Under the pieces are notes generated by a model. That model did no database searches, was not told the DNA's origin, and saw only the letters and a list, made by a program, of their open reading frames with translations. A program made the translations under genes and the position numbers. A stretch of DNA of 24,000 nt from Candidatus Ornithomonoglobus sp. (GTDB lineage: Bacteria; Bacillota; Clostridia; UBA1381), in assembly GCA_045537455.1 (NCBI GenBank), contig JAZSPM010000193.1, positions 1 through 24,000 on the forward strand, given 5' to 3'. Below are positions 7,119 through 23,359 of this stretch, in pieces. How positions within the stretch are numbered: the stretch's first letter is position 1; each line of letters begins with the position of its first letter.

Positions 7119-7125
7119 AATAAAA

Positions 7126-7286: not shown

Positions 7287-7341
7287 AAGGCGAGTTTTAA
7301 AGTTTTTAAACCGTCATATTTCAGTCGGAATGGAGGATTTT

Positions 7342-8442: not shown

Positions 8443-8520
8443 TTTTTTAGCCGTCAGATTTTTGTATTTGCTATTTGAAAATAATGCTATTTTCGGCTAT
8501 TTATCTTGCTAATTTGATAT

Positions 8521-8539
8521 ATGAGCGGAATTGACGAAA
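8521..8539. repeat. right copy of the perfect 19-bp inverted repeat bracketing the recombinase gene
   Basis: atgagcggaattgacgaaa lies 79 bp after the recombinase stop and 75 bp before the -35 of the response-regulator promoter. Confidence 0.9.
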
Positions 8540-8613
8540 TTATATTTTAAGTTCATCTTATTATATTATGTCGTAAATCAATTCTTTTATCATAATATTT
8601 TTGTAAAAAAGAG

Positions 8614-8642
8614 TTGCATTTTAATGTTTCTTGTGATACAAT
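8614..8642 (+). promoter_or_regulatory. sigma-A promoter with extended -10 for the regulator-kinase operon
   Basis: TTGCAT (8614-8619), a 17-nt spacer, then TGaTACAAT (8634-8642). The predicted transcription start near 8650 excludes the upstream in-frame starts at 8614 and 8644. Confidence 0.55.
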
Positions 8643-8676
8643 TATGAAAAAGAGTATTATTGAGAGGATTGGTTTT

Positions 8677-9408
8677 ATGTTGAGGATCGCAATTGTGGAT
8701 GACGAGGAGCATATTTGTGAGCAAGTGGAACGTTTATTACAGGAATGTTCTAAACAGATAAATGTTGACTTCCAAATAGAAATTTTTTATTCAGGTGAAG
8801 CGTTAATTTCAAAGTTAAAAGATGATGAAAAATTTGATTTAATCTTCCTTGATATTGAATTGTATCAATATAATGGTATAGACGTTGGACATTTTATTCG
8901 AGATGAATTGCTTGATGATTCTACTCAAATAGCATTTATATCGGGCAAGAATGGTTACGATAGACTTCTGTTTGAATTTAGACCAATACATTTTATTGAG
9001 AAACCTGCGACGTTGAGTAAAATACAAAACGTAATTACAAAGTATATTCGTATCTATGGACAACAAGGTGATGTGTTTAATTATAAAGTTAACAGAGACA
9101 CTTATTATGCTGATGTAAATAAAATCCTGTATTTCAAAAGTGATGACCGTAAGGTGATAATAGTAAGCAAAGATGATATCGATGAATTTTATTATTCAAT
9201 AGAAAAAATAGCACAGCAGTTAAAGAATAAAGGATTCTTTGTTCCTCACAGGAGTTATTTGGTGAACTATAGATATGTAAAATCTTTTCAGCTTAAGAAG
9301 ATTATTATGACTAATGGTGATGAGATACCGATCTCTGAAAACAGGAGGGCAGACGTCTTAAAAATACAGGTAATTATGGAAAATGGAGGTAAATTCTATG
9401 GACTTTGA
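8677..9408 (+). CDS. agrA: LytTR-family response regulator (AgrA-like)
   Basis: GAGAGGA at 8662-8668 precedes ATG 8677 (MLRIAIVDDEEH...). There is a receiver domain (IFLDIEL phospho-acceptor context). The C-terminal LytTR domain reads ILYFKSDDRKVIIV...FFVPHRSYLVNYRYVKSF...MTNGDEIPISENRR. Confidence 0.85.
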   Translation: MLRIAIVDDEEHICEQVERLLQECSKQINVDFQIEIFYSGEALISKLKDDEKFDLIFLDIELYQYNGIDVGHFIRDELLDDSTQIAFISGKNGYDRLLFEFRPIHFIEKPATLSKIQNVITKYIRIYGQQGDVFNYKVNRDTYYADVNKILYFKSDDRKVIIVSKDDIDEFYYSIEKIAQQLKNKGFFVPHRSYLVNYRYVKSFQLKKIIMTNGDEIPISENRRADVLKIQVIMENGGKFYGL

Positions 9409-10669
9409 TTTGTACACATGGGTTTACCTTATAACAAATCTATTTACGCTTGCAATTGTTCATAGGTTTATGGGAGCTTTTTTTGACGAAATAATTAAGC
9501 CTAAATGGCATATAATTATTTCGTATGCGTTGTACTTTGTTTTTACCAGTGCGATGTATCTAATATGGGATATACCCGTACTTGCGATGATAGTCAACTT
9601 AATACTACTCTTTGTTATAACGTTGAATTATAGATCTAGCTTAAGAAAAAAACTTTTTGTTGTAATATTCTTTTATATTTTTATGTTTGTTACTGAAGTT
9701 ATAGTATGTGCGGTGACGGGATATTTCAATTTTCCTATGTTTAATAGTGGTAATTACAATAATTCAACAGGACTGGTAGTAATGAGATTGGTTGCTTATT
9801 TAGAATCTATAGTTTTTTGTAATATAAAGTCTTTAAGGAAAAATGATATTGTTACTATACCACAATGGATAGCAACATTATTTATTCCAATTTCAACTCT
9901 TGTTATGAAAGTACTTGTTGTTGATTCTGAAAATGCTAGTCAGTTTCAAGTAATCTCATCGACAATAATCATATTTTTGATTAATCTTCTTACGTTTTTC
10001 TTATATAATTCTTTATCTAAAAGTTATGCTAAAGAAAAAGTGACTGCACTAATAAGTAAAGAAAAGGAAATGTACTATAATCAATGTCTTCTTATGCAAG
10101 AAACTAATGAGCATTTACAGGGTTTTCGTCATGAAATAAACAATCAATTTATATCGATGAAGGAGTTAATAAATAAACATATGTATAATGAATTAGATGC
10201 TTTTGTTGAGAAACTTACTGAAAAACTTGAAATAGAGAAAATATACAGCAATACAGGGAATGTTGTAGTTGACAGTATAATCAACTACAAGTTAAATCTA
10301 TTAAATAATGCTGATGTTGTAACAGAAATAGCAGTACCATCTTCGTTAGAAGTTGATATAAATGACATGGTTATCATATTAGGTAATATTCTTGATAATG
10401 CGGTTAAGGCACTTAATGAAAATGAAAAGGATTCAAAGTTGTATTTTAAGTTAGTATATAGTCAAGGAAGATTACTCATAAAAGAAACGAATACCTACAA
10501 AACAAGAATATGTTATGAAAACGGTAAAATTCAATCAAGCAAAGCAGATAAAGCCAATCATGGTTTGGGCTTGAAAAATGTAGAGGATGCTGTTAAAAGA
10601 CATGATGGATATATGGAGATAAATCATAATGACAATATTTTTTCAATAGATATCATATTGTTTGTTTAA
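9398..10669 (+). CDS. agrC: AgrC-like membrane sensor histidine kinase (GHKL, HPK10-type)
   Basis: GGAGG at 9385-9389 precedes ATG 9398, and the start overlaps the regulator stop by 11 nt. The N-terminal half has about 6 hydrophobic helices. The H-box is FRHEINNQF, the N-box is LGNILDNAVKA and the G-box is NHGLGLKNVEDAV. Confidence 0.85.
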   Translation: MDFDLYTWVYLITNLFTLAIVHRFMGAFFDEIIKPKWHIIISYALYFVFTSAMYLIWDIPVLAMIVNLILLFVITLNYRSSLRKKLFVVIFFYIFMFVTEVIVCAVTGYFNFPMFNSGNYNNSTGLVVMRLVAYLESIVFCNIKSLRKNDIVTIPQWIATLFIPISTLVMKVLVVDSENASQFQVISSTIIIFLINLLTFFLYNSLSKSYAKEKVTALISKEKEMYYNQCLLMQETNEHLQGFRHEINNQFISMKELINKHMYNELDAFVEKLTEKLEIEKIYSNTGNVVVDSIINYKLNLLNNADVVTEIAVPSSLEVDINDMVIILGNILDNAVKALNENEKDSKLYFKLVYSQGRLLIKETNTYKTRICYENGKIQSSKADKANHGLGLKNVEDAVKRHDGYMEINHNDNIFSIDIILFV

Positions 10670-10683
10670 CAAATAATAGTATA

Positions 10684-10718
10684 ATGCCTTGTAAGTAAAT
10701 TGCTTACAAGGCATTTTT
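10684..10718 (+). terminator. strong intrinsic terminator after the kinase gene
   Basis: atgccttgtaag-taaattg-cttacaaggcat is a perfect 12-bp stem followed by tttt. Confidence 0.8.
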
Positions 10719-10771
10719 ACTGCAAATAACACAGGATTTCACAGCAATCAAAATAAAATACAATTTTTTAA

Positions 10772-10780
10772 TGCTATAAT
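10772..10780 (+). promoter_or_regulatory. extended -10 promoter element upstream of the AgrD-like ORF (activator-dependent type, no good -35)
   Basis: TGcTATAAT lies at 10772-10780. The -35 position (about 10752-10757) reads aataaa, a poor match as in activator-dependent agr promoters. ACAG-type imperfect direct repeats lie upstream at 10731, 10741 and 10760. Confidence 0.5.
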
Positions 10781-10817
10781 AAACCTGCCAAAAAATATAA
10801 AATAAAGGGGTGTTATT

Positions 10818-10961
10818 ATGAGAAAATTTTTAATTAAATTTAGCGGATTATTTGCAGCATTCGCATTATGTGTTACAACTTTAACTGAGAATTCAACTTG
10901 TTTTTTTTGTGCTCATCAGGAAGAAATGCCTGCTAATTCAAAGAAACTCCGTAAATTTTAA
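10818..10961 (+). CDS. agrD: AgrD-like autoinducing-peptide precursor (47 aa; below the ORF-track size cut-off)
   Basis: My translation is MRKFLIKFSGLFAAFALCVTTLTENSTCFFCAHQEEMPANSKKLRKF. It has an amphipathic leader, a Cys-containing core and a charged tail. The tail Pro lies 6 residues after the predicted cleavage point (CFFCA|HQEEMP), the same spacing as S. aureus CDFIM|DEVEVP. The RBS is AAAGGGG at 10804-10810. The stop overlaps the agrB-like start (TAATG at 10959-10963). Confidence 0.75.
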   Translation: MRKFLIKFSGLFAAFALCVTTLTENSTCFFCAHQEEMPANSKKLRKF

Positions 10962-11542
10962 TGTTTAGGGATATTTCATCAAAATTAACAGACAAGCTTA
11001 TAAGCTTAAAAACAATTGATCCAGAAGATAGAGAAATATATGAATTTGGAATACAGCATATTTTTATTACTATTTTTAATATATCTACAGTTCTACTACT
11101 TGGACTTCTGCTAGGTGATCTTAAGGAGGCTATGATTTTTATTTTTGCTTTTATACCATTAAGGATATTTGCAGGAGGTTTCCACTTTAATTCACCAATA
11201 ATGTGCTACATATTTTCTTCATGCTTTGTAGCGGTAGTTCTTTTGGCAATGAGATATTTAAGCATTCCGCTTCTCATTTACTGCTTGCTATATTGCCTGT
11301 CTGGTATTATAATACTGACTTTTGCACCGGTAGAGGATAAGAATAAGCCTTTGGATCAGCTTGAAAAAAAGGTGTACAGGAAAAGAACGATAATTGTATT
11401 TGTTGCAGAAAATATGATTATGTTGTTATTCTGCTCCTTAAAATTCTACATTGCAGCAAAATGTATTATGGTGTCAATAATTGCTTTAGGATTATTAATT
11501 GTTTTAGGCGTAATAAAAAATTATTTGCTAAGCGTCAAATGA
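10961..11542 (+). CDS. agrB: AgrB-like membrane endopeptidase (AIP maturation)
   Basis: 193-aa polytopic membrane protein. The motif PLRIFAGGFHFNSPIMCY has His and Cys 7 residues apart, as for the catalytic H77/C84 pair of S. aureus AgrB. It is translationally coupled to the AgrD-like ORF. Confidence 0.8.
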   Translation: MFRDISSKLTDKLISLKTIDPEDREIYEFGIQHIFITIFNISTVLLLGLLLGDLKEAMIFIFAFIPLRIFAGGFHFNSPIMCYIFSSCFVAVVLLAMRYLSIPLLIYCLLYCLSGIIILTFAPVEDKNKPLDQLEKKVYRKRTIIVFVAENMIMLLFCSLKFYIAAKCIMVSIIALGLLIVLGVIKNYLLSVK

Positions 11543-11547
11543 TTTTT

Positions 11548-11608
11548 ATCAGTATACATTCGTAATTGGTTGTTATGCATACTGGAAAAGGATGTATACT
11601 GATTTTTT
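11548..11608 (+). terminator. long-loop terminator / possible attenuator between agrB-like gene and toxin gene
   Basis: atcagtatacat (11548-11559) pairs perfectly with atgtatactgat (11592-11603), followed by a T-run to 11608. A third near-copy, atgcatactg (11575-11584), in the loop can also pair with the 5' arm with one mismatch. Confidence 0.5.
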
Positions 11609-11647
11609 ACAAGCAAAAATTAAAATTATTTCTAATGGGGAGGGTAT

Positions 11648-11746
11648 ATGAGAAATTTAAATAATCTCAAAAGAGTAGTAAGCGGTGTTCTTAGTGTTAC
11701 TTTGCTGGCTAACTTTGGAACAATATTTCCGATGAATGCATTTGCC
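11648..11746 (+). other. Sec-type signal peptide of the toxin
   Basis: MRNLNNLKRVVSGVLSVTLLANFGTIFPMNAFA|NEE has a basic n-region, a hydrophobic core and an AFA cleavage-type site. Confidence 0.7.
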
Positions 11747-14700
11747 AATGAAGAAATTGAAGAACAAGCAGACTCTATTAATGAAACAACTGGTCACAGG
11801 TACCAATTAATTGATACATCGATGAGTTGGACCGAAGCTGAGGAGTATTGCGAAAGCCTTGGTGGACACCTTGTTACAGTAAATTCAAGCGATGAGCAGC
11901 AGTTCATTGTTGATAATCTGTTAACAATAGGAACAAAAAATGCATACTTTATCGGTATGTACAGAGATGACATTGATAGTGACTGGAAATGGGTAACAAA
12001 CGAATCTACCGAATTTTTTAACTGGGATGAAGGAGAACCAAGCTATACAGATGATAATTATGTGTATATGTATGGTTCAAATTTCAATTCAGGCAGTTGG
12101 AAAAACACGCAGAACTATGTAGAGGATTCAACTGAATTCTCAACAGCTAATATAGGTTATATATGTGAATGGGAAGCTGAAGAATCTGAAGTTGAAGTAG
12201 AGAGAAGAATGAAGAACTACGCTCTTTTTTCAGCAAGCAGTTCAACAGATTTCAGTTATTCTGGCTGGAAAAGTAATATCATAGGCAATATTTATAGTGG
12301 TTCATCTTTTAAATATGGTGGATCAGAGTTCAGCGTTACAGGAAGGGTTGATACCGTAAATTCTATTTCTGCTGATGGCTGGAAGATAGAAATCAATGAA
12401 AGAAATGAAAACATTGCTCCAGTGGAAATGGAAGATTTTGATAAGGTTATTCATGATAACGCACAGCCCTATGATTATTACGAAGAAAATACTGTGTATA
12501 TACAGGATTTGAATGTAATAGATAAGTCGATAAAGATTTCTGGCGACGTTGAAATCGGCGGAACAACTTTTGAAGGTGATTGCTATATTATTGCCGACGG
12601 AAATATTACATATAATGTTAATGATTTCAATTCTACAGGCAGGGTATTCTTATACTCCCAAAACGGAAATATTACTATAAATGGAACAAACGTTAACATA
12701 AACGGAGGCATTTATGCACCTAATGGTAACGTTTCTTTTAATATATACGAAACAAATCTTAATGGTTTTGTATGGGCTGACAGTATAACATATAGTGGCA
12801 GTATTTTTAATGTAACTGCTAATAATTTTGATATGCTTGAACCGAGAAGTGTAGTTAAGACTTATACTATCGATGCCGATTTTAACGAGGGACAGTTCAA
12901 CGGACTTGGCTTGGATGTTTCTGATGAATTGACTTTAACATCTGGCAATAAAGCAGTTGAAACACCTTCTGAAAGAATATATGGCGATTCGGAAACCGGC
13001 AAAGGAGTAAAGGTTACTTATTCAACAGATAAATCTGCTGTCACAGGTGATGGAGATAATGTTACTGTAAAGTACGGACTTGGCGGATTCGGTGAAGCAG
13101 ATGTAACTGAAAATGCAGTTGATCTTATTATTGTAGTTGATGAATCCGGTAGCATGGCCGGAAATCGTATGACAAATACTAAGTCAGCAGCAAAACAGAT
13201 TATTTCACAAATGAAGGAAGTTGATCGTTGTGCGGTTGTTGGATTTACCGGCAGTTCAAATGTAAAACAGAATCTGACATCTGACAAAGATTTGCTTAAT
13301 AAAGCTGTTGATAAACTTTATGCTAGTGGCGGAACTGCGATTTACTCAGGAATTGATAAAGCACTTGCAATGTTTGATGAACAGAGTGAGGATAGTAGAC
13401 AGAAATATATTATTCTTTTATCAGATGGCGAAGACGGATATGAAGCACGTTCTCTTCAATCAGCAACAACTGCTGGCAATAGCGGAATACGAATTTTCTC
13501 AATGAAAATCGGAAGCGGAACTCTTCAGATGCAGAATATTGCTATCAATAGCAATGGAATATATAAGAATGCACCTACAGCAGATGATATTGTTAAAATA
13601 ATGTCATACTTTGCTTCTGAAGTGTTTAACGTAGCAGGAAGAAACACCACATTTAAGACTACTATCAAGGATATAAATTCTGTTGATATTTCTTCTCTTA
13701 GTCCAGAACCCTCAAAAATAATGGAAAACGACGACGGAAGCGTTTCTGTTGAATGGAATTTTGATAGAATAACTATCGATGAAGAAATGGAAATTAATAT
13801 TCCTTTGACTGTAACTGGCGATAATAACGGATTTGTTGACCTTCTTGAAAATACATCATGCGTCTATTACGATAGAAATGGTAAACCAAATGTAATATAT
13901 GCCGAAGATGCATTTTTACCGATAAGCGATTATGTTGATAATGGTAACTGGACAGTTATTTTTGATAGTGAAAGAGAAACTGTTGAGTGGGATAAAATTT
14001 ACTGGAATGGTAACAGATATGGTGATGGTGAAATTTCAGTATATGTTTCTTCCAGTAATGATGGAGAGAATTTCTCAGAGCCTGTCAAGATTGAAAACTT
14101 TGAACAATTCTCTGGCGTGGTAGGCAGATATGCTAAAATTAGTGTAGATATGAAAGTATCTGCTGATGGAAGAACCCCTGAGTTGTATGACATTACAATT
14201 GTATCAAAGGATGCAGTTGTTACAGATTTAGAAAACAATTCCCCTGTCGCAGAGATTGTTTCAAAGAATAATACTAAAGTTAATGTTCCGATGACAGTTA
14301 GAGCTGATCTTGCAGATGATTGCCTGAAATCAAATATAACTGTTTCATGGGACTGCGAAAGTGACAATTTGAAGTTTTCTAGTTCTTCAGAACTAATTAC
14401 ATCTGTAATTTGTTCCGAAACAGGAAGCTATGAAATAATCTGTACTGTAAATGACGGTGAAAAAACTGTTCAAAGTTCAAAAACTATTGTTTGTGAACCG
14501 GCAGATAGCTATGCAAATATTGATCCTGATAATCAGGACGAGGCTGCAGCACCTGAAATCAATGTTGTACTTCCTAAATATGCTGACAGAAAAGAAACCA
14601 TTAACGCACAGATTGAAAAGCTTAATGATACAGAAATTTCCTGGTATTCTGTAATTTTCAATGGTAATACAGCAGTTGATGTAACTGATGATGGAGCATT

Positions 14701-17700
14701 TTCTCTTGTTATGCCTAATAAAGATGGAACCTATAAGGTTGTTGTCAGAGCATTTGATTGGGCTGGTAAGTCTGATGTTAAGGAATATTCTATAATAGTT
14801 GACAGTACTGTAGCTGCTATTGAAATAAAGCCATCTTCTGAGGAAACAACAATCAATTCAGATGCATATTTCAAAGTATCAGTCGCTGCTGCTCATAAAA
14901 TTAAAGAAATTGTTTATACTTTGAACGGAAAGCAGATTGCCATTCCCGAAGATGGCATTTTACCTGTAGATACCAATGTTGAAGCAGAATATGTTCTTGA
15001 AGCTAATGGTATTACTACATCCGGTAAAACGCTTAAAGCTTCTGCAAAGATTACTGTAATTGAAGAAGATTCAGAAAAGCCTGTTGTTAATATCACTTTT
15101 GATAAAAATAGCTATAACGAGAAACAGAATGCTGTTATAACAGTAAAAGCAACTGATAATGTAGGTGTAACTTCACTTGTTGTATTACTTGATGGTAAGG
15201 AAATCGTTCTTGACGGCAATGGACAGTTTTCGATTACAAATATGAAATACGGTGAATACGTTATTACAGCAAATGCTTATGATGAAGCAGACAATAATGG
15301 TAGTGCTACAAAAACATTAACCGTAAAGGATGTAACAAAGCCTACCCTTTCATTAACTGTTGATAAAACGGAAATAGACGTTGGAGAAACAGTTAATATT
15401 TCTGTTGACGCTGCTGATAACAATGGTGTTGTAAATACAGTATTAACTGTAAATGATAAAGAACTGGAACTTTCAGAAGATAACTCTGTATCTTTCAAAC
15501 CTGATACAGCAGGGACATATACTATAAAGGCTGTAGCATCTGATCCTTCTGGAAATAGTCTTACAAAGAAGGTAACTGTCACAGTTAAAGAAGTTGATAC
15601 AATTGCTCCAATTGTTACTATTTCCTTTGATAAGGATACTTATTTTGAAACTGATGATATTGTAATTAATGTTTCCGCAACAGACAATGTTGGAGTAACC
15701 GATATAGCCTTATTAATTGACGGAACTGAAGTTGAACTTAATGCAGAAAATTCATACACTATAAAAAAAGCTGAATTAAAGAATTATACAATCACAGCTA
15801 AAGCTTATGATGAAGAAACCAATGAAGGAACTGCTACTGAAACTGTTGTAGTAAATGAAGCAAAAGCACCAGAGATTAATGTAACATTTGACAAGGACAT
15901 TTACAATGAAGGCGATTCTTTACAGGGTCTTGTAACAGTTCAGGGTCAGAGCGAAATTATCTCTCTTACAGCAAAAGTGAATAATCAGCCTTTAGCACTT
16001 GAAAACGGTATATTTACACTTAGTAATCTTGAAGCAGGTGAATATACATTTACCTTTACTGCTGAAGATGTAAGAGAAAAGACATCAACAATTAATAAAA
16101 CCATTACTGTTATTGATGAAGAACATAAAGCTGATGAGAGATTGTATGCTGTTGTTGATGGTCTTGTTGAGTATGGTAAATCAGCAATGTACAAGGTTAC
16201 AGCCTCAGATGATATTGATAAGTCTACTATTTTAGTAACCTTAAACGGTGAAAAAATTGAACTGACGGATGAATATACATACGAATTTAAGGGCGAAAAA
16301 CTTTTTACAAATGAATTCATTTTAACAGCAGAAACTGTTGATGGTGAAATTCTTACTGTTAAAAATTCAGTGCTGGTTTACGAAACTGAAAAACCAACTG
16401 TTACAGTAGTTCTTAATAAAGACAAGGATATTCAGGAACATGATGATATTGTAATAACAATAACTGCAGAAGATATTTCCGGAATAAGAAAAATCCAGTG
16501 CTTATATGATGGCGTAGAAATTCCTCTTGATGAAAACGGACAGATGTTCATCAATGATTTTGAAGTAAGACCTCATTCGGTTGTTATAAGAGCATGGGAT
16601 AATTTCGGTAACCTCAGATCATATCTCCTTTCATTCTATGTAGTAGAAACAGAAGTATCAGGCGGTGGTTCTGTTTCTGTTGGTGGCAATACAGAAGATA
16701 CAGAGTCCAAAACATTGATTGCGGATATTTATACACCAATTAATGAAGATGTCATTTCTTGTCCTTCGTATATTTTCGGTCGTGCAGACGGTACAGAATT
16801 TGAAAAATACAGATTGGAATACCAGTCAGCAGCAGGTGGAGATTATGTTCTTATCAGCGAAGGAACAGAAAAAGTAAATAATGGTTCTTTAGGTGAATTT
16901 GATACAACTATGCTCCGAAACGGACTTTATAACATCAAGCTTACTGTATGGGGTAAGAACGGTGAAGTAACCTCTGATGAAATTATTGTTTCTGTTGAAG
17001 GTGAGATGAAAATCGGTAACTTCTCACTTGATTTTCAAGATATGGATCTCAATGTAGCTGGAGCTCCGGTTACAGTAATAAGGGGCTATGACAGCCGTGA
17101 CAGAAACATAAGCGGAGATTTTGGCTATGGTTGGAATCTCTCTACCTGCGGTGTAACTGTTACAAAGAGCTGTGACCTTAGTCGTAATTGGGATATGCAG
17201 CAAAAAGGATATAATATTTCTTACACCCCCACAAAACCTCATATTATATCAGTTAACTGGGGTAATGGCAAAGTTGAGAAATTTGTAATGGAAGCTAAAA
17301 GTGATGGTGCATCAACATTGAAAACAGCTTCATTCACTTTCAAGTCAATGGATGGAAGTAACTCTAAACTTTTCCCAAATATTACAACTGGAGCATGGAT
17401 TTATGAAAACGGGTATTTCTTTAAGTTAGATGAAGAGTGGGATGATATACCTTTTAATCCGGATGTATGGCAATTAAATAAAGCTGATGGTACAAAGTAC
17501 CTTATTAGCTGTACAAATGGAATTTTAGCTTTTGCTGATGCAAATGGAAATCAGATTAAATTTAATAAGGATGGAATTGAAAACTCTGATGGTGAAGAAA
17601 TTTCAATTATTCGTGACAGTAATGACAGAATTACAAGCATTTCATCTCCAACAGGTAAAACAGTTTCATATGAATATGATGAAAATGGAGATCTTGTAAA

Positions 17701-20700
17701 GGTTATTGATATTTCAGGATATGAAACAACCTTTGAATATGATAATCATTATCTTACTGCTATTATCGATCCCAGAGGTGTAACAGTATCAAGAAATATT
17801 TATGATGATAACGGCAGACTTATCAAAACAATTGATGCAGACGGAAATGAAATCGTTTACGACCATGACATTGACGGTCGTGAAGAAACCATTACCGACC
17901 GCAATGGTGGAATTACAAGATACGTTTATGACCATAACGGAAATGTGACTTCACAGACCGATCCAATGGGCAATACTGTAAAGAATACCTACGACAGTAA
18001 TGGTAATCTTTCATCAAAAACTGATGCTATGGGCAATGTAACCAATTACAGTTATGATGATAACGGCAATATGCTTGGAATGACAGATGCCGAGGGAAAT
18101 ACTGTTACAAATGAGTATAACTCCAAAGGCTTTATTACATCAATTAATGCTATGGGCATTGATATTATGAGCGTTACATATGACGAAAAAGGCAATACTT
18201 CATCAACTATTGACGCTCTGGGTAATGAAATTAATTACAGCTATGACAGCAAGGGTAATCTTGAGTCTGTTACTGATGAAATAGGTACATATATGAATAT
18301 GACCTATGACAGCAAGGGAAATGTAATTTCTGCAACAAACGGTGCTGGTACAACGGCTGAATTTACGTATGACAGCGACGGAAACTGTCTTTCTAAAACG
18401 CTTACATATACATCGGGCGAAGTGACAAAGACCGTCACAGAAAATTATACATATGATGAATCTGGAAATCTCGTTAAAATTATTGATAGCGATGGAAATA
18501 TTACAACAACAGAATATAACAGCATTGGTAAAATTTCTGTTGCTACAGATGAAAAGGGCAGACAGACCTTATATGATTATGACAGTCTTGGAAATGTTAT
18601 AAAGATTACCTATGCCGACGGCACTTCTGAATCCTTTACATATGACCGTGAGGGTAATAATCTGACAGCAACAGATAGACTTGGCAGAACAGTTACAATG
18701 AAATACGACAAGGTTGGAAACCTTATCAGCAAAACCTATCCAAATGGTGCAGCTGTAAAGTATACATACGATGCAAATTATAATCTTACATCAACCATAA
18801 GTGCAAGCGGCAATGAAACCAAGTATGAATATGATGCAATTGGCAGAAATACCGTAATCATTGACGCACTTGGAAATCACACAGAATTCACATATAACTC
18901 TCATTCTCAGCTTAGCAGTATGACCGATGCGAACGGAAATGTGTATACCTATACCTATGATGATAATGGTAACAGAACAGCTACCACATATCCTGACGGT
19001 TCAAGTGTTTCTTCCGCATATGATGCAAGAGGCCGTGTAATAAGTCAGACTGATCAGCATGGATATACAACTTCATATACATATGACGGTGCTGACCGAC
19101 TTACAAGCGTTACTGACGCACTCAGCAATGTGACAAGCTATACTTATAACGAAGTTGGAAATCTTATTAAAGTAACCGATGCAAATAATCATTCTACACT
19201 TTACACTTACGATGATTTCAGCAGAGTAATTAAAACAACAAATGCACTTGGCCAAACAGCTGAGGTTACATATGATATCTGCGGAAATGTTCTGACATCA
19301 ACAGATTTCGGAGGAAAGCTTACTTCATTCACATATGATGAGTTTGATAGGGTTATCGAAAAGAAAACTGCTGACGGTACAGTAACATATTCCTATACAA
19401 CAGACGGAAAGCTTTCATCCGTTACAGACAAGACAGGTACTACAAAGTATACTTATGACAGCATGGATGGGCTCAAAAAAGCAGTATATCCTAATGGCGA
19501 ATATGTTGAATACACCTATGATGATGCAAGCAGACTGACAGGAGTAAAAACTTCTTACGGCACAACATCCTATGAATATGATAAGCTTGACAGACTTGTA
19601 AGAGTTGTAGACAGAAACGGATATGCTACAGTATATGAATATGACAAAAATGGTAACAGGTCAGCTGTAAGATATGCCAACGGAATTGTAATAACTTACA
19701 AATATGACGAGGTAAACCGACTTATATGCGAAAAAGCCCTTGACAAACAAGGTGGAATTGTGGCACAATATGAATATACCCTTGGTGCAGCAGGAGAGCG
19801 AACAGCAGTCAAGGAACTTGACCGTACAGTAGAGTACACATATGATGCGCTTTACAGACTGACAAGCGAAAAGATAACTGCGGCTGACGAAACTGTAACA
19901 GAGTATACATACGCTTATGATAATGTAAGCAACCGTATCTTGAAAACCGAAAATGGTGCTAAAACAGTCTATACCTACAATGCTCTCAATCAGCTTGTAA
20001 AGGAAAATGACGCTGTTTACAAGTATGACGATGCAGGAAATCTTATTTCCACAACATCGGCAGATAAGTCAGCTACATATACTTACAATGCTGAAAATAA
20101 GCTGATTCGTGCTACTGTTCAGGAGGGCAATAATGTTTCTGTTGAGGAATATGAGTATGACTATGCAGGAAACAGAATCGTAAAGAAGTCTGAAAACGAC
20201 TATACTTATTATCTGAATGACATAAGCGGAAGTCTTACACAGGTTCTTGCAGAGCTTGATGCGGACGGAAATGAAAAGTGCTGGTACACAAGAGGAATTG
20301 AAATTATTTCTCAGGAGCGTAACGGTGATGTTTCATACTACCTTACAGACGGTCATGGTTCAGTAAGACAGCTTTCTGATTCTACTTGTGCAATAACGGA
20401 TACTTATGTATATGACGCATGGGGCAATTTGATTTCATCAACTGGCAATACTGAAAATAGCTATCTCTACTGCGGCGAACAGCTTGACAGCACAACAGGT
20501 CTTTATTATCTCCGTGCGAGATATATGAACCCCACAACAGGTACGTTTATCTCAATGGATACGTATCAGGGTACAATTTTCGACCCGACTTCTCTGCATA
20601 AGTATCTTTATGCTAATGCGAATCCTGTGATGAATGTTGATCCGAGTGGATATTTCACACTTGCAGAAGTAAATGTTTCAGGTGCTATAAACAATATTCT

Positions 20701-21841
20701 TGATAATTCAGCTACTCTGAATTATATGAGAATTTATCAAAATCTGAAGAGTAAACTTAATGCAATAAACAACATTCTTACACTTTACGATACAGCAAGA
20801 CAGATTGCAATGATAATCAACGATCCTGAATTGTCAGGCTGGCAGATGGTTGAAGGAATTGCATGCGGAGTTATTACCGGTTTGTTTATGAACCGTATGT
20901 GCCAGATGAAAGCAATAGGACCGATTATCAGTAAGGTGTTGACGGGATATGGTCTGGCAACGCAATGGCAAAGCATAATGGATGCTGCCAAAAACAAAGA
21001 CTGGGATTTGGTCGGCACACGTTCTATACAGCTCATACTCTCGCTTATGTCACTGCATCAGAATTGCTTTACAGGTGAAACCCTTGTTGCGGCAGAAAAC
21101 GGACAGAAGCGAATTGATGAAATTGAAGTCGGTGACAAGGTATGGGCGTATGACATCTTTACAGGTGAAACAGCACTCAAGGAAGTTACAAAGGTTTATG
21201 TCCATGAAGTAGATGAGATACTGCACCTGTACACTTCATGCGGAGATATCGACACAACAACAAATCATCCGTTCTATGTTATTGAGCGTGGTTGGGTAGC
21301 GGCTGGCGACCTTGTTGAAGGTGATGAAATCTATCTTCTTGACGGGTCAACTGCTGTTATAACCGGTTCTGAACTTGAACAGCTTTCTGAAACGATTAAG
21401 GTTTATAACCTTGAGGTTGCGGATTTCAATACCTACTTTGTTGGCGATAATGCTGTTCTGGTGCATAACTATGATCGTAAGCCAAGATCGCCAAAATCAA
21501 ACGTTGATAGTGTTGATGTTCAAGATGGTAAAATTACTTATACTAAAACGAGTCCGGACAATGGTCAACAATACAGTGTTACATACAACGAGGATGGATT
21601 CCCTGATTTTTCCCCCTATCGTTATAGTGGAAATGACGGTAAAGGATTAGTGAAGATTGACTATTCTGGAGATAGATACACTGATTTTAATTTTGCAAAT
21701 CAGGCGGCTGGATTCCCAAGTACTCCAGACGGTTATACTTGGCATCATTTAGAAGATATGTCATCTATGGAACTGGTACTTACTGTTGTCCATAAACTGT
21801 TTCCACATACAGGTGGATTTGCGCTATTTAATAATCCTTAA
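11648..21841 (+). CDS. giant secreted RHS/YD-repeat polymorphic toxin (3397 aa): C-type lectin, vWA, Ig-like array, RHS shell, pre-toxin HINT, WHH nuclease
   Basis: Uninterrupted 10.2-kb ORF with GGGGAGGG at 11637-11644 before ATG 11648. The domains are listed separately below. All antisense ORFs inside it are short shadows. Confidence 0.95.
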   Translation: MRNLNNLKRVVSGVLSVTLLANFGTIFPMNAFANEEIEEQADSINETTGHRYQLIDTSMSWTEAEEYCESLGGHLVTVNSSDEQQFIVDNLLTIGTKNAYFIGMYRDDIDSDWKWVTNESTEFFNWDEGEPSYTDDNYVYMYGSNFNSGSWKNTQNYVEDSTEFSTANIGYICEWEAEESEVEVERRMKNYALFSASSSTDFSYSGWKSNIIGNIYSGSSFKYGGSEFSVTGRVDTVNSISADGWKIEINERNENIAPVEMEDFDKVIHDNAQPYDYYEENTVYIQDLNVIDKSIKISGDVEIGGTTFEGDCYIIADGNITYNVNDFNSTGRVFLYSQNGNITINGTNVNINGGIYAPNGNVSFNIYETNLNGFVWADSITYSGSIFNVTANNFDMLEPRSVVKTYTIDADFNEGQFNGLGLDVSDELTLTSGNKAVETPSERIYGDSETGKGVKVTYSTDKSAVTGDGDNVTVKYGLGGFGEADVTENAVDLIIVVDESGSMAGNRMTNTKSAAKQIISQMKEVDRCAVVGFTGSSNVKQNLTSDKDLLNKAVDKLYASGGTAIYSGIDKALAMFDEQSEDSRQKYIILLSDGEDGYEARSLQSATTAGNSGIRIFSMKIGSGTLQMQNIAINSNGIYKNAPTADDIVKIMSYFASEVFNVAGRNTTFKTTIKDINSVDISSLSPEPSKIMENDDGSVSVEWNFDRITIDEEMEINIPLTVTGDNNGFVDLLENTSCVYYDRNGKPNVIYAEDAFLPISDYVDNGNWTVIFDSERETVEWDKIYWNGNRYGDGEISVYVSSSNDGENFSEPVKIENFEQFSGVVGRYAKISVDMKVSADGRTPELYDITIVSKDAVVTDLENNSPVAEIVSKNNTKVNVPMTVRADLADDCLKSNITVSWDCESDNLKFSSSSELITSVICSETGSYEIICTVNDGEKTVQSSKTIVCEPADSYANIDPDNQDEAAAPEINVVLPKYADRKETINAQIEKLNDTEISWYSVIFNGNTAVDVTDDGAFSLVMPNKDGTYKVVVRAFDWAGKSDVKEYSIIVDSTVAAIEIKPSSEETTINSDAYFKVSVAAAHKIKEIVYTLNGKQIAIPEDGILPVDTNVEAEYVLEANGITTSGKTLKASAKITVIEEDSEKPVVNITFDKNSYNEKQNAVITVKATDNVGVTSLVVLLDGKEIVLDGNGQFSITNMKYGEYVITANAYDEADNNGSATKTLTVKDVTKPTLSLTVDKTEIDVGETVNISVDAADNNGVVNTVLTVNDKELELSEDNSVSFKPDTAGTYTIKAVASDPSGNSLTKKVTVTVKEVDTIAPIVTISFDKDTYFETDDIVINVSATDNVGVTDIALLIDGTEVELNAENSYTIKKAELKNYTITAKAYDEETNEGTATETVVVNEAKAPEINVTFDKDIYNEGDSLQGLVTVQGQSEIISLTAKVNNQPLALENGIFTLSNLEAGEYTFTFTAEDVREKTSTINKTITVIDEEHKADERLYAVVDGLVEYGKSAMYKVTASDDIDKSTILVTLNGEKIELTDEYTYEFKGEKLFTNEFILTAETVDGEILTVKNSVLVYETEKPTVTVVLNKDKDIQEHDDIVITITAEDISGIRKIQCLYDGVEIPLDENGQMFINDFEVRPHSVVIRAWDNFGNLRSYLLSFYVVETEVSGGGSVSVGGNTEDTESKTLIADIYTPINEDVISCPSYIFGRADGTEFEKYRLEYQSAAGGDYVLISEGTEKVNNGSLGEFDTTMLRNGLYNIKLTVWGKNGEVTSDEIIVSVEGEMKIGNFSLDFQDMDLNVAGAPVTVIRGYDSRDRNISGDFGYGWNLSTCGVTVTKSCDLSRNWDMQQKGYNISYTPTKPHIISVNWGNGKVEKFVMEAKSDGASTLKTASFTFKSMDGSNSKLFPNITTGAWIYENGYFFKLDEEWDDIPFNPDVWQLNKADGTKYLISCTNGILAFADANGNQIKFNKDGIENSDGEEISIIRDSNDRITSISSPTGKTVSYEYDENGDLVKVIDISGYETTFEYDNHYLTAIIDPRGVTVSRNIYDDNGRLIKTIDADGNEIVYDHDIDGREETITDRNGGITRYVYDHNGNVTSQTDPMGNTVKNTYDSNGNLSSKTDAMGNVTNYSYDDNGNMLGMTDAEGNTVTNEYNSKGFITSINAMGIDIMSVTYDEKGNTSSTIDALGNEINYSYDSKGNLESVTDEIGTYMNMTYDSKGNVISATNGAGTTAEFTYDSDGNCLSKTLTYTSGEVTKTVTENYTYDESGNLVKIIDSDGNITTTEYNSIGKISVATDEKGRQTLYDYDSLGNVIKITYADGTSESFTYDREGNNLTATDRLGRTVTMKYDKVGNLISKTYPNGAAVKYTYDANYNLTSTISASGNETKYEYDAIGRNTVIIDALGNHTEFTYNSHSQLSSMTDANGNVYTYTYDDNGNRTATTYPDGSSVSSAYDARGRVISQTDQHGYTTSYTYDGADRLTSVTDALSNVTSYTYNEVGNLIKVTDANNHSTLYTYDDFSRVIKTTNALGQTAEVTYDICGNVLTSTDFGGKLTSFTYDEFDRVIEKKTADGTVTYSYTTDGKLSSVTDKTGTTKYTYDSMDGLKKAVYPNGEYVEYTYDDASRLTGVKTSYGTTSYEYDKLDRLVRVVDRNGYATVYEYDKNGNRSAVRYANGIVITYKYDEVNRLICEKALDKQGGIVAQYEYTLGAAGERTAVKELDRTVEYTYDALYRLTSEKITAADETVTEYTYAYDNVSNRILKTENGAKTVYTYNALNQLVKENDAVYKYDDAGNLISTTSADKSATYTYNAENKLIRATVQEGNNVSVEEYEYDYAGNRIVKKSENDYTYYLNDISGSLTQVLAELDADGNEKCWYTRGIEIISQERNGDVSYYLTDGHGSVRQLSDSTCAITDTYVYDAWGNLISSTGNTENSYLYCGEQLDSTTGLYYLRARYMNPTTGTFISMDTYQGTIFDPTSLHKYLYANANPVMNVDPSGYFTLAEVNVSGAINNILDNSATLNYMRIYQNLKSKLNAINNILTLYDTARQIAMIINDPELSGWQMVEGIACGVITGLFMNRMCQMKAIGPIISKVLTGYGLATQWQSIMDAAKNKDWDLVGTRSIQLILSLMSLHQNCFTGETLVAAENGQKRIDEIEVGDKVWAYDIFTGETALKEVTKVYVHEVDEILHLYTSCGDIDTTTNHPFYVIERGWVAAGDLVEGDEIYLLDGSTAVITGSELEQLSETIKVYNLEVADFNTYFVGDNAVLVHNYDRKPRSPKSNVDSVDVQDGKITYTKTSPDNGQQYSVTYNEDGFPDFSPYRYSGNDGKGLVKIDYSGDRYTDFNFANQAAGFPSTPDGYTWHHLEDMSSMELVLTVVHKLFPHTGGFALFNNP
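11795..12175 (+). other. C-type lectin-like domain (CTLD)
   Basis: HRYQLIDTSMSWTEAEEYCESLGGHLVTVNSSDEQQFI...YFIGMYRD..DWKWVTNESTEFFNWDEGEPS...GSWKNTQN...GYICEWE. This matches the classic CTLD Cys, WxW and W..GEP pattern. Confidence 0.75.
12200..12840 (+). other. Asn/Gly-rich predicted beta-helix/solenoid segment
   Basis: Periodic short repeats such as GDVEIGGTTFEGDCYIIADGNITYNV, GRVFLYSQNGNITINGTNVNINGGIYAPNGNVSFNI, NGFVWADSITYSGSIFNV. The fold is inferred from periodicity only. Confidence 0.4.
13121..13630 (+). other. von Willebrand factor A (vWA) domain with MIDAS motif
   Basis: DLIIVVDESGSMAG (the DxSxS motif), then ASGGTAIYSGIDKAL, then YIILLSDGEDG. Confidence 0.8.
14234..16645 (+). repeat. 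array of about 9 tandem Ig-like/PKD/cadherin-like beta-sandwich modules (85-95 aa each)
   Basis: Module starts and ends recur. Examples are KPVVNITFDKNSYNEKQNAVITVKATDNVGVTSLVVLLDGKEI...TLTVKD, APIVTISFDKDTYFETDDIVINVSATDNVGVTDIALLIDGTEV...TVVVNE and KPTVTVVLNKDKD...ITITAEDISGIRKIQCLYDGVEI. The repeats are divergent at the DNA level. Confidence 0.7.
17598..20200 (+). repeat. RHS/YD-repeat shell region
   Basis: Dozens of units of the form G..t.Y.YD..GNl.s.tD..Gn.t, for example TVSYEYDENGDLVKVID, TRYVYDHNGNVTSQTDPMGNT, YTYTYDDNGNRTATTYPDGS. They are preceded by the usual FGYGWNLS entry motif (near nt 17120). Confidence 0.9.
20225..20650 (+). other. RHS repeat-associated core domain with autoproteolysis motif
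   Basis: YYLTDGHGSVRQLSD...YVYDAWGN...YCGEQLDSTTGLYYLRARYMNPTTGTFISMDTY...LHKYLYANANPVMNVDPSGY. The P-x-x-x-x-DP-x-G motif lies at nt 20624-20650. Confidence 0.85.
20651..21064 (+). other. helical/hydrophobic pre-toxin linker (PT-TG-like)
   Basis: A segment of about 137 aa between the RHS core and HINT. It has hydrophobic stretches and TG dipeptides (GIACGVITGLFMNRM, ISKVLTGYGLATQW). The family assignment is tentative. Confidence 0.35.
21065..21469 (+). other. pre-toxin HINT (Hedgehog/intein-like) autoprocessing domain
   Basis: It starts with CFTGETLVAAENG (Cys-1 at nt 21065), has the block B-like TTTNHPFYV, and ends with FVGDNAVLVHN (Asn at 21467-21469). The +1 residue is Tyr, so it would cleave but not splice. 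Confidence 0.85.
21296..21472 (+). repeat. HINT 3' homology block, resident copy (recombination handle)
   Basis: gtagcggctggcgaccttgttgaaggtgatgaaatctatcttcttgac...attaaggtttataaccttgaggttgcggatttcaatacctactttgttggcgat...gtgcataactat has near-identical partial copies at 22931-23041 and 23716-23820. Confidence 0.85.
21470..21838 (+). other. C-terminal WHH-type HNH/EndoVII-fold nuclease toxin domain
   Basis: DFNFANQAAGFPSTPDGYTWHHLEDMSSMELVLTVVHKLFPHTGGFALF. The WHH triplet lies at nt 21740-21748 and is followed by the H...H-x-GG signature. Confidence 0.75.
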
Positions 21842-21860
21842 ATCTGATACAAAAACTACT

Positions 21861-21897
21861 ATAAGGAGAGATAATAAATTAATATATCTCTCCTTAT
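21861..21897 (+). other. 13-bp perfect hairpin between toxin and immunity genes (no U-tract)
   Basis: ataaggagagata-(11 nt)-tatctctccttat is followed by gaaaatt, so it is not a canonical terminator on the + strand. Confidence 0.5.
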
Positions 21898-21929
21898 GAA
21901 AATTAAAAGATTAATATAATGGAGGAATA

Positions 21930-22853
21930 ATGGAAGATTTTTTAAAATGGATAAAAAACACGTTTGATACTAACTTGCCAAATGATTATCTGCAATTTTT
22001 GTTATCTTATGATGAAAGTAGTGTTGTAGGAAAAGTTTTTCAGTTTTTTGAAAATGAAAAATTAACCTCAACTGATATTCATTATTTTTTTAAAATAGGA
22101 AAAAACAAAATGAATTGTATCGAATGGAATTATAATAATTATTTATCAGAGGATATAATTCCAGCATTTTTCCTACCTATAGCGGAAGATAGTGGAGGCA
22201 ATCTTATTTGTTTAAGCATGGATGTTGAGAATTACTCTCGCATATATTTTGTTTTACATGATAGCTTTGAAATGACATATTTTTTTGTAGCTAATAGTTT
22301 TTCAGAATGGTGTTCAAAGATGTATTCTCAACAGATAAATAGGCAAAATGATGAAAGTAATACTATCTATACATTTAAAAAATATGGTAGCGGGATTTAT
22401 TCAAATGGCATCACCAAAGATAGTTCCAATGTAGATGTATCGGAGTTTTCCTACAGTACTATTGACGAATTTATGGCTAGAGAAAAAATAGATTTTCCAC
22501 TTTTGTTGTACAACTTTTACAGTTCAACAGACGGAATAGAAATCAATAGAAAAATTGAGTTTATTTGCAAAAAAACAAAATTTTCTGTAGAAATATCAAC
22601 TGTTTTGCCTTTTGATGAGGCTGAAAAGAAATATTATAAAATGGCTAAGTCTGAACCTAAAATGGCAGATTATTTCCCTATTGCTATATCATCCAATATA
22701 AATTTTATAGCATTGCTAAAAGTACGTAAAAAAAATAAGGGAAAAATATATTTTTGGAACGCGTTCAACAGAGATATCGTTGAGGCATATGATTCAGCAG
22801 ATGATTTTTTGGGTGAACTAGGTATTGAACCTCATTCTCTTGATGAATCTTAA
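21930..22853 (+). CDS. tandem SMI1/KNR4 (SUKH) domain immunity protein, presumed cognate to the WHH toxin
   Basis: GGAGGAA precedes ATG 21930. Domain 1 reads LPNDYLQFLLSYDES...IAEDSGGNLICLSMD...FVANSFSEWCSKM. Domain 2 reads IDFPLLLYNFYSSTDG...FPIAISSNINFIALL...IYFWNAF...AYDSADDFLGEL. It lies directly 3' of the toxin gene. Confidence 0.8.
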   Translation: MEDFLKWIKNTFDTNLPNDYLQFLLSYDESSVVGKVFQFFENEKLTSTDIHYFFKIGKNKMNCIEWNYNNYLSEDIIPAFFLPIAEDSGGNLICLSMDVENYSRIYFVLHDSFEMTYFFVANSFSEWCSKMYSQQINRQNDESNTIYTFKKYGSGIYSNGITKDSSNVDVSEFSYSTIDEFMAREKIDFPLLLYNFYSSTDGIEINRKIEFICKKTKFSVEISTVLPFDEAEKKYYKMAKSEPKMADYFPIAISSNINFIALLKVRKKNKGKIYFWNAFNRDIVEAYDSADDFLGELGIEPHSLDES

Positions 22854-22906: not shown

Positions 22907-23359
22907 TTGTTGACAGTTCAACCGATCGTAACAGGTGCAGAACTTGAAAAGCTTACTGAGCCAATTAAGGTTTATAACCTTGAGGTTGAGGATTTCAATA
23001 CCTACTTTGTTGGTGATGAAGCTGTTTTGGTGCATAATTATCTTGATAAAAGTGATCATGCAAAGCATAGGCAGGCTGAAGGAAGAAATGTAGGTACTGC
23101 TGGACACGATTTGAATAATGCGAGACCTTCGGATGTTTACATTCAAAATAATGATGGTCGCTATGTACTTAAGGGAAATAATGGGAGAGTTCATATATTT
23201 GAACCAGATGGAGAACTTGTAACAACAATGAATAAAGTTACCAATTTCTCAAAACGAGTATCAAGTGGAAGATATTCTCCATTAAGTCTTAAACAAATAT
23301 CAGAATTTATAGAAATCTTTGGCGAATTTTTAAATAAGAATTGGAATGGATACAGATAA
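22907..23359 (+). CDS. orphan toxin cassette: HINT C-terminal fragment fused to an alternative, unassigned toxin domain (no credible start or RBS of its own)
   Basis: The frame opens right after TAG 22898-22900. Residues VTGAELEKLTEPIKVYNLEVEDFNTYFVGDEAVLVHNY match the resident ITGSELEQLSETIKVYNLEVADFNTYFVGDNAVLVHNY. The sequence then diverges into LDKSDHAKHRQAEGRNV...DGRYVLKGNNGRVHIFEPDGELVTTM (105 aa). Confidence 0.75.
   Translation: MLTVQPIVTGAELEKLTEPIKVYNLEVEDFNTYFVGDEAVLVHNYLDKSDHAKHRQAEGRNVGTAGHDLNNARPSDVYIQNNDGRYVLKGNNGRVHIFEPDGELVTTMNKVTNFSKRVSSGRYSPLSLKQISEFIEIFGEFLNKNWNGYR
22931..23041 (+). repeat. HINT 3' homology block, orphan copy 1
   Basis: aaggtttataaccttgaggttgAggatttcaatacctactttgttggTgatGAAgctgttTtggtgcataaTtat differs from the resident 21398-21472 at only a few positions. 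Confidence 0.85.

Follow-up and report, generated by a model that had tools for sequence, protein, structure and literature searches.

Can a peptide quorum-sensing circuit act as the switch of a giant toxin gene that lies just behind it? The question is raised by a stretch of 24,000 nt from Candidatus Ornithomonoglobus sp. (Clostridia; assembly GCA_045537455.1, contig JAZSPM010000193.1, positions 1 to 24,000), referred to over its full length as the window, in which an agr-type cassette directly precedes the gene for a 3397-aa RHS toxin. In the open reading frame (ORF) map all genes concerned are co-directional on the plus strand and follow the order mobilisation genes, integrase, LytTR regulator, histidine kinase, AgrD, AgrB, toxin, SUKH immunity gene and orphan cassettes (Table 1). 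Agr-type targets in commensal gut and rumen Clostridia are essentially unknown, and a rumen review describes the evidence for agr in that habitat as limited (PMC10838665); a giant secreted DNase toxin is proposed here as a concrete and conserved output. An earlier, sequence-only reading of the window had proposed that the autoinduced agrD-agrB transcript reads into the toxin locus. From the analysis reported here we consider it fairly probable that the agrACDB quorum-sensing cassette is the cis-regulatory front end of this Sec-exported RHS/PT-HINT/HNH-DNase toxin, although in the window itself the predicted fusion of the two would be at best an attenuated read-through.

Linkage of agr-type cassettes to giant toxins

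AgrB homologues were drawn from a large protein collection and their contigs were fetched. At all 26 fetched loci with an AgrB 54-100% identical to that of the window (L001-L019 and L183-L189, from human and other gut metagenomes and one metagenome-assembled genome, MAG, of Ruminococcus flavefaciens), a giant Lectin_C/VWA scaffold was encoded directly 3′ of agrB. Regulator, kinase, AgrD and AgrB were followed after 89-116 bp by this protein of 2300-3400 aa, and an integrase gene stood ahead of the regulator wherever the upstream sequence sufficed. The toxin end of the arrangement varied: C-terminal length differed among loci with identical AgrB, and in the group with 54-55% AgrB identity a transglutaminase-type body with SUKH-3 immunity replaced the RHS body, the N-terminal scaffold being retained. 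The integrase-regulator-kinase-AgrD-AgrB cassette recurred with AgrB at about 40% identity in L058, in L059 and as the left-hand module of L003; here it was followed, 48 nt on, by a 1486-aa CBM_2/TSP3_bac/DUF4474 secreted protein and no RHS toxin. AgrB homologues at 35-39% identity lay in unrelated contexts. A pattern scan of metagenomes identified a second family of giant RHS toxins 3′ of agrB (L064, L119, L072, L132, L150 and L172), with a signal peptide, calcium-binding dockerin-like DxDGDG repeats and an N-terminus unrelated to that of the window toxin.

Apparent operon fusions were found among these relatives. The end of agrB and the start of the toxin ORF share 4 nt in L132 and 8 nt in L150. 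The gaps of L030 (about 36 nt) and L037 (about 24 nt) contain a ribosome-binding site only, with no hairpin, and on any sequence criterion the two genes would there form operons. A direct-repeat pair of the kind described below precedes agrD in both overlapping cases, together with TGCTATAAT in L150 and an extended -10 in L132.

The reverse comparison covered 37 loci encoding relatives of the toxin N-terminus, nearly all of them in MAGs of Ruminococcus/Oscillospiraceae and other Clostridia from the rumen, rabbit and human gut. Twelve had same-strand agr genes upstream, 14 showed no agr in an upstream stretch of 3.5 kb or more, and the remaining 11 were too short. The agr-less copies followed cellulosomal dockerin genes or stood immediately behind the gene of a type IV coupling protein, with upstream intergenic regions of about 180-1000 bp. 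L024 and L025 resemble the window in integrase (81-82% identical) and toxin N-terminus (62-67%), whereas their regulators are only 26-27% identical, AgrB of L025 is 35% identical, agrB of L024 is only a fragment, and the AgrD rings read CLWWL and CAWWH as against CFFCA in the window. Since integrase and toxin N-terminus are similar and the agr alleles diverged, the agr module has been swapped as a unit between neighbours that were kept. Judged from these comparisons the linkage of agr to toxin is recurrent, modular and, since about half of the toxin relatives have no agr, facultative. Conserved modular synteny and the apparent operon fusions in relatives make a functional coupling of agr and toxin well supported.

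The agr-type system and its promoters

By sequence criteria the cassette is an agr-type system, with AgrB, AgrD, a polytopic HPK10-like kinase and a LytTR regulator with paired repeats. Family profiles recovered both the AgrD-like peptide and the AgrB-like protease named in the sequence-only reading. The precursor reads ...NSTCFFCA/HQEEMP..., with a predicted ring CFFCA followed by an HQEEMP tail; a Cys lies five residues ahead of the predicted cleavage site and the C-terminal tail is charged. Ring residues differ between loci. The start of agrB overlaps the agrD stop (TAATG), and AgrB has H75 and C82, with the seven-residue spacing of the AgrB catalytic pair and a predicted peptidase activity; these residues presumably correspond to H77 and C84 of Staphylococcus aureus AgrB. 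At least six hydrophobic segments were counted in the kinase, whose H-box, FRHEINNQ, lies at H250. With 17.8 bits against a cutoff of 500, it is not an equivalog of staphylococcal AgrC.

Regulator and kinase were thought to form a unit with its own promoter and a strong terminator, and this is consistent with the Pfam assignments, with a promoter architecture kept in L001, L003, L009, L015, L016 and L025, and with an equivalent hairpin and T-run 3′ of the kinase in six of six compared loci. The regulator start had to be moved: TTG at 8614, from which it had been read, is part of the -35 hexamer TTGCAT, and the ORF begins at the ATG behind GAGAGGAT, which gives 243 aa as in all homologues. Damaged kinase genes were seen in L185 (split into 226 and 162 aa), L007 (interrupted by an HTH_Tnp_4 gene), L015 and L024 (both split). 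Other agr losses were a reduction of agrB to 58 aa in L024, the absence of agrB from L028, and agrDB without regulator or kinase in L041. Natural inactivation of agr genes thus recurs beside intact toxin genes and recalls the agr-defective variants of staphylococci.

The spacer between kinase and agrD was aligned for six loci with an AgrB 54-72% identical to that of the window. Its 9-bp direct repeats (consensus CACTGCAAN) have a period of exactly 22 bp in all six, and the start of the proximal repeat is in each case exactly 35 bp from the -10 hexamer. The proposal that the second unit starts at an extended -10 without a -35 agreed with the alignment, TGnTA(T/C)AAT being kept in all of the six but L009, where no TG stands ahead of TACAAT. 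In L025, L132 and L150, which belong to other agr lineages, the repeats differ in sequence but keep a 21-22-bp period before agrD and are followed by an extended -10. In a position weight matrix scan of the whole window for repeat pairs, the site before agrD scored 23.1 and the runner-up, at 21232-21261 inside the toxin ORF, scored 15.8; the latter is at chance level, shuffled sequence yielding about one repeat pair with a score of at least 14. Since only the site before agrD scored strongly, the scan gave no second LytTR box pair in the window before the toxin or the regulator gene or near the integrase and relaxase promoters. Just 3′ of the agrD -10, CTGCCAAAAA (10785-10794) contains a TGCCAAAAAT motif at the predicted transcript start. 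This motif is kept in all six diverged loci of the clade, better than its surroundings, and may provide the sequence context of the start site or a signal for regulation or antitermination.

The gap between agrB and the toxin gene

The ORF map confirmed that the toxin ATG lies 105 bp past the agrB stop, and most of this gap (11543-11647) is taken up by a hairpin. Its stable stem followed by a T-run on the transcribed strand gives it the structure of an intrinsic terminator and makes it a putative attenuator. The sequence-only reading gave it too little weight, treating it only as a possible refutation. A hairpin and T-run right after the agrB stop also occur in other clades (L048, L064/L119/L072 and L172).

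That the gap has no credible σA promoter was upheld. The promoter scan reported no plus-strand σ70-like site within the 105 bp, although such a scan is weak in DNA of 30% G+C (22 sites found, 23 expected). TAAAAT at 11621 was rejected as a toxin promoter, having no -35 and not being conserved, and so was TATACT in the 3′ arm of the hairpin, which likewise lacks a -35, reads TGTACT in L003 and is replaced by an unrelated stem in L015 and L016. An agrB-internal TTGCTA-17-TATAAT (11285-11313) was also set aside: it lies in coding sequence, is partly conserved, and still has the hairpin ahead of it. In L001-type loci the toxin ATG follows the T-run at a distance of about 25 nt, too short for a separate promoter 3′ of the hairpin. 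No L025-type boxes were found in the 537-bp agrB-toxin gap of L025.

The invertible integrase segment

The same pair of 19-bp inverted repeats brackets the integrase gene in every related locus, in a segment of about 1.4 kb, and the integrase occurs in both orientations with mirrored distances to the repeats (164 and 79 nt in L004, 79 and 166 nt in L003). L087 and L119, from different samples, are 100% identical over 2705 bp on the left and 99.8% identical over 1020 bp on the right, and the 1394-bp segment from repeat to repeat is 100% identical and inverted. L170 relative to L118/L081 and L072 relative to L064 are likewise inverted between matching flanks, and L024 and L025 have collinear flanks with an inverted interior. 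Since contigs with identical flanks differ only by inversion, the repeats were rejected as att sites of a simple insertion as the sole explanation. Judged by these inversions in relatives, segment 7159-8539 of the window would be invertible in the manner of an inverton. The integrase points away from agr in about one fifth of some 50 metagenome loci in which integrase and regulator are visible; six of six fetched contigs of the window's own lineage have the window's orientation only.

Two promoter-like sites lie inside the segment, arranged back to back a short way 5′ of the integrase gene. The outward-facing P_out is conserved in all integrase-cassette lineages, P_int before the integrase gene less so. 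In the window's orientation P_out would run into the bidirectional terminator-like hairpin on the left. In the stretch from the integrase stop to the right repeat, hairpin analysis gave no terminator. After inversion P_out would read through the right repeat into regulator and kinase. Since the regulator-kinase unit has a promoter of its own outside the repeats, an effect of inversion on agr is something that we infer.

The repeats are also places where modules may have been joined. L004 and L003/L006 are 99.8% identical over 13,016 bp from the right repeat (position 4532 of L004), a stretch covering agr and toxin; their integrase cassettes share no more than 84-87% identity, face opposite ways and differ in what lies to their left. 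The left context in L003 is a second, divergent agr-effector module, so that one cassette lies between two modules. These comparisons suggest exchange of agr-toxin modules by site-specific recombination at the 19-bp repeat. A wider proposal, tentative and somewhat doubtful, is that the element is a portable 'kin-gated weapon' with three stacked controls (invertible segment, hypervariable agr pherotype and attenuator), the repeats being module crossover points and the L003 cassette a possible toggle.

Proposed coupling of the toxin to the agr circuit

Under the proposed coupling, the whole agr-toxin unit would travel as cargo on a mobilisable element of Ruminococcus-like (Oscillospiraceae) gut bacteria, which also bears the relaxase and the integrase. 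Regulator and kinase would be made from their own σA-type promoter, with transcription ending at the strong terminator, and AgrB would process AgrD into an autoinducer with the ring CFFCA. At quorum, the phosphorylated LytTR regulator would bind the 9-bp repeats and fire the -35-less promoter. A fraction of the agrD-agrB transcripts would then pass the hairpin and T-run into the toxin gene, immunity gene and orphan cassettes, so that toxin output would stay at a fixed, low proportion of that of the signal genes and would be confined to dense populations sharing one pherotype. Because the terminator-like hairpin sits between agrB and the toxin gene, coupling in the window must be by partial read-through or antitermination. 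The transcriptional fusion claimed earlier is partly supported, by the overlapping genes of L132 and L150 and by conserved synteny, and is too simple a picture for the window, where a hairpin and T-run intervene. Gene identities, the spacing of boxes and promoter, the hairpin, the synteny and the overlaps in relatives are direct observations. That the circuit induces itself, that the regulator binds the repeats, that transcription reads through and that toxin output follows cell density are steps that we infer, and read-through is the weakest link among them.

Several observations weigh against this coupling. A hairpin and T-run are found in all 11 distinct gap sequences of the window's clade, and the hairpin is under selection and looks like a competent terminator. 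Among five variants of the window's own lineage its substitutions fall in the loop only, stem and T-run being invariant (one further change lies in the spacer before the ribosome-binding site); the hairpins of L003 and the window, as read from the two sequences, differ by one double (compensatory) and one G-U change; and in L015 and L016 the stem at this place is of unrelated sequence. If this hairpin is efficient, the toxin would be nearly silent from the agrD promoter. The toxin can moreover be expressed without agr, since 14 of its 26 informative relatives have none upstream, and its gene is intact in several natural variants with a broken kinase or agrB. Within the same element family, the gene behind the agr cassette in some cases encodes a lipoprotein-like or small secreted protein and no toxin.

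Alternatively, there may be two separate transcription units, with agrDB efficiently terminated, the toxin gene under a promoter that escaped recognition (perhaps in overlap with the 3′ arm of the hairpin, or read by an alternative sigma factor), and adjacency reflecting co-mobilisation and not regulation. Such an arrangement would agree with the stable hairpin and T-run at every locus of the clade, with the presence of TATACT and TAAAAT in the gap, with the half of the toxin relatives that have no agr, and with the intact toxins beside broken agr genes. It is nevertheless unlikely, as both candidate -10 sequences are without a -35 and not conserved, the space left in L001-type loci is about 25 nt, agrB and toxin gene in L132, L150, L030 and L037 either overlap or follow closely with no hairpin between them, and the gene order is kept across agr alleles down to 26-35% identity. 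A position between relaxase/integrase genes and cargo, and the related cassettes that sometimes precede lipoprotein-like or small secreted proteins, could also mean that agr mainly controls something else, such as transfer or excision of the element or unlinked genes, and that the toxin is unrelated downstream cargo. We give this hardly any credence: the sole strong box pair in the window faces agrDB and the toxin and away from relaxase and integrase, no pair lies near the integrase or relaxase promoters, and in most lineages giant secreted toxins are found 3′ of agrB.

DNA inversion might instead be the primary on/off control, a flipped P_out reading into regulator and kinase and raising circuit sensitivity and toxin output, so that quorum sensing would act only in 'on' cells; this would be compatible with the agr cassette as front end of the toxin. 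The perfect repeats argue for it, as do the identical-sequence flip between L087 and L119, the roughly 20% of loci in opposite orientation, the quality and conservation of P_out (11 of 12 positions plus TG, in all lineages), and the bidirectional terminator on the left with none between the integrase gene and the right repeat. As the primary control it is decidedly unlikely, however, because regulator and kinase have a conserved promoter of their own beyond the repeats, integrase transcripts in the window's orientation could enter that unit too, which would leave neither state clearly 'off', and the six own-lineage contigs share one orientation. With the agr cassette taken as the front end of the toxin, the weapon is probably switched on by cell density, the hairpin notwithstanding.

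Relation to known systems

Like agr of S. aureus (agrBDCA) and agr2 of Clostridioides difficile, the cassette encodes AgrB, AgrD, a multi-pass HPK10-type kinase and a LytTR regulator. It has the gene order A-C-D-B of C. difficile agr2, given there as 'agrACDB' (PMC3754575), and a direct-repeat pair ahead of its promoter, as at AgrA/LytTR sites, where paired direct repeats lie before promoters whose -35 is poor or missing (PMC4227749). Hypervariability of AgrD and sensor, as in agr pherotypes, and recurrent loss-of-function variants are common to both. Unlike S. aureus agr, the cassette has no RNAIII-like effector, its output being apparently a protein-coding gene in cis past agrB; the proximal repeat is nearer the -10 than at P2/P3, and the kinase falls far under the AgrC equivalog cutoff. 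Unlike in known agr systems, the cassette lies on a mobilisable element beside an invertible integrase.

Density control of antagonism is already known; an agr cassette in cis to an RHS toxin would be a new form of it. Class II bacteriocin loci (Pln, Spp, Blp/Com) have a LytTR regulator, an HPK10 kinase, a secreted peptide and direct-repeat promoters, the signal being a linear double-glycine peptide that leaves via an ABC transporter and the weapon a small bacteriocin. The window would share with them a quorum-induced antibacterial weapon with immunity genes, and would differ in having an AgrB-processed cyclic peptide as signal and a 3397-aa RHS toxin as weapon. Type VI secretion systems and Burkholderia contact-dependent inhibition make toxins density-dependent through acyl-homoserine-lactone or LuxR regulators in trans; the concept of density-dependent deployment of polymorphic toxins is the same, whereas the circuit of the window is physically joined to the toxin gene and moves along with it. 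In lantibiotic operons (nisA-nisB), a short and strongly expressed first gene is followed by a leaky terminator. The window resembles them in its hairpin and U-run after the short genes of a presumably autoinduced promoter, with large, apparently promoterless genes downstream; unlike in nisA-nisB, the upstream genes encode signal and protease and not the weapon, and read-through is a prediction.

In logic the closest known toxin is WapA of Bacillus subtilis, which is under DegSU/YvrGH-type control. WapA and other Gram-positive RHS/YD toxins share with the window toxin a Sec signal, an RHS/YD shell and a variable nuclease tip, and also an adjacent immunity gene (here SUKH) and orphan tip-immunity cassettes. 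Unlike WapA, the window toxin has Lectin_C, VWA and an Ig array in place of wall-binding repeats, a PT-HINT release module and an upstream agr cassette. Invertible switches such as fimS/FimBE, Hin and the 'invertons' of gut bacteria combine inverted repeats, a recombinase and a promoter inside the segment. The integrase segment likewise has short inverted repeats, both orientations, a site-specific recombinase and an internal promoter; it differs in enclosing the tyrosine recombinase gene itself within its 1.4 kb, in being flanked by a relaxase gene and an agr cassette on a mobile element, and in that its regulatory effect is a prediction. SUKH immunity has been placed in the polymorphic-toxin framework (PMC3113570), and epigenetic invertons have been described (PMC7672463). 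The ABP antibacterial protein system (PMC13460014) was ruled out, there being no serine protease AbpP-type gene in or beside the locus.

Full-text literature searches, with most subscription journals outside their coverage, gave no agr/LytTR cassette in cis before an RHS or polymorphic toxin, no agr targets in Ruminococcus and no combination of inverton, relaxase and agr, in agreement with the earlier statement that an agr-RHS linkage had not been described. If the proposed coupling is true, strain-level competition of the abundant fibre-degrading Ruminococcus would be gated by pherotype-specific peptides and spread on mobilisable elements, and the locus would be a compact natural cassette of sensor, signal, attenuator and payload, addressable by synthetic peptides. 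The invertible integrase segment would be a possible phase-variation layer and a mechanism shuffling pherotype-toxin modules. The module is widespread in gut metagenomes, with polymorphism of both pherotype and toxin tip.

Other features of the window

Table 1. Positions of genes and putative regulatory features in the 24,000-nt window.
Feature	Position	Strand	Basis
Conjugation/mobilisation genes: TraG-like P-loop protein, DUF6103, MobL relaxase	first in the array	+	family scans
MobL-family relaxase with Sel1 repeats	4689-7118	+	Pfam MobL 1.1e-29, Sel1 1.4e-34
Bidirectional terminator-like hairpin (A5-stem-T5), abutting left inverted repeat	7123-7162		dG -24.2, z -5.8 (+); dG -25.2, z -4.1 (-)
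Left 19-bp inverted repeat, TTTCGTCAATTCCGCTCAT	7159-7177		perfect inverted copy of 8521-8539
P_out, outward promoter-like site inside segment, TTTACA-16-TGaTATAAT	7222-7249	-	11/12 match plus TG
P_int, promoter-like site before integrase gene, TTGAAA-18-TATAAT	7257-7286	+	11/12 match
Tyrosine recombinase (integrase)	7330-8442	+	Pfam Phage_int_SAM_3, Phage_integrase
Right 19-bp inverted repeat, ATGAGCGGAATTGACGAAA	8521-8539		homology breakpoint of L004 vs L003/L006
Candidate regulator-kinase promoter, TTGCAT-17-TGaTACAAT	8614-8642 (-35 at 8614-8619, extended -10 at 8634-8642)	+	read from sequence
AgrA-like response regulator (receiver and LytTR), 243 aa	8677-9408	+	Pfam LytTR 5.4e-18, Response_reg 4e-11
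AgrC-like histidine kinase, multi-pass sensor and HATPase_c_5	9383-10669	+	Pfam 3.3e-18
Intrinsic-terminator-like hairpin and T5 closing regulator-kinase unit	10683-10718	+	dG -23.7, z -6.2
Putative LytTR binding site, 9-bp direct repeats TACTGCAAA (10718-10726) and CACAGCAAT (10740-10748), 22-bp period	10718-10748	+	spacer alignment, position weight matrix scan
Extended -10 of agrD-agrB promoter, TGCTATAAT, without -35	10772-10780	+	read from sequence
AgrD-like autoinducer precursor, 47 aa	10818-10961	+	TIGR04223, 30.9 bits (cutoff 19)
AgrB-like membrane peptidase, 193 aa	10961-11542	+	PF04647, E 6.7e-43
Terminator-like attenuator, 14-bp-stem hairpin (11548-11561/11590-11603) and T-run (11603-11608)	11548-11608	+	dG about -21, z -3.9
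Polymorphic toxin, 3397 aa	11648-21841	+	Pfam, translation
Tandem SUKH (SMI1_KNR4) immunity protein, neutralisation predicted	21930-22853	+	Pfam 1.3e-22, two stretches
Orphan cassette, PT-HINT tail and different C-terminal domain	22907-23359	+	PT-HINT profile positions 100-136 only
Putative immunity gene of orphan cassette, 109-aa ORF	23341-23670	+	position after cassette
Second, truncated HINT remnant	23692-23844	+	AGDLVEGDEIYLLDG...SELEQLSETIKV matches toxin HINT region

Pfam assignments sustained the description of the toxin as an RHS protein with HINT, immunity gene and cassettes. Its domains run in the order Sec signal, Lectin_C, VWA, Ig-like repeats, RHS/YD shell, PT-HINT and WHH/HNH DNase tip, with RHS_repeat matched in 20 stretches (E 2.9e-130) and the C-terminus matched by PT-HINT (5.2e-25), WHH (2.9e-12) and Colicin-DNase (1.7e-11). 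The stretch most widely retained in distant relatives, some of which match there only, comprises residues of about 180-400 (window about 12190-12850); it has repeats such as NGNITINGT...NGGIYAPNG, a beta-helix-like look and no Pfam match. The interval that separates the toxin gene from its immunity gene holds a further hairpin (21860-21898; 14-bp stem, no T-run, dG about -20, z -3.7), which may serve in processing or stabilisation. Family scans gave no family for the orphan-cassette tip or the 109-aa ORF.

At the gathering thresholds no Rfam family matched the whole window, and at E of 1 or less only sub-threshold, hairpin-like chance matches were obtained within 7050-11760. No tRNA was found in the window, and a query of 8400-12400 had no match in a plasmid collection. 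A simple terminator scan returned 0 sites, having overlooked both obvious hairpins, the one between agrB and the toxin gene through its loop and GC limits, and was not used as negative evidence.

A MobL gene lies left of the integrase in many related loci, and the mobilisation backbone precedes the integrase-agr-toxin unit in most. Within this backbone the window has a lone SUKH (SMI1_KNR4) immunity-type gene on the minus strand (4250-4624), as does L185, which may be an orphan immunity gene carried by the element. The G+C content shifts near position 7000, from about 0.44 in the relaxase region to about 0.30 in the integrase and agr genes, with the toxin at about 0.35-0.40; this drop suggests that the mobilisation backbone and the integrase-agr-toxin unit have different histories.

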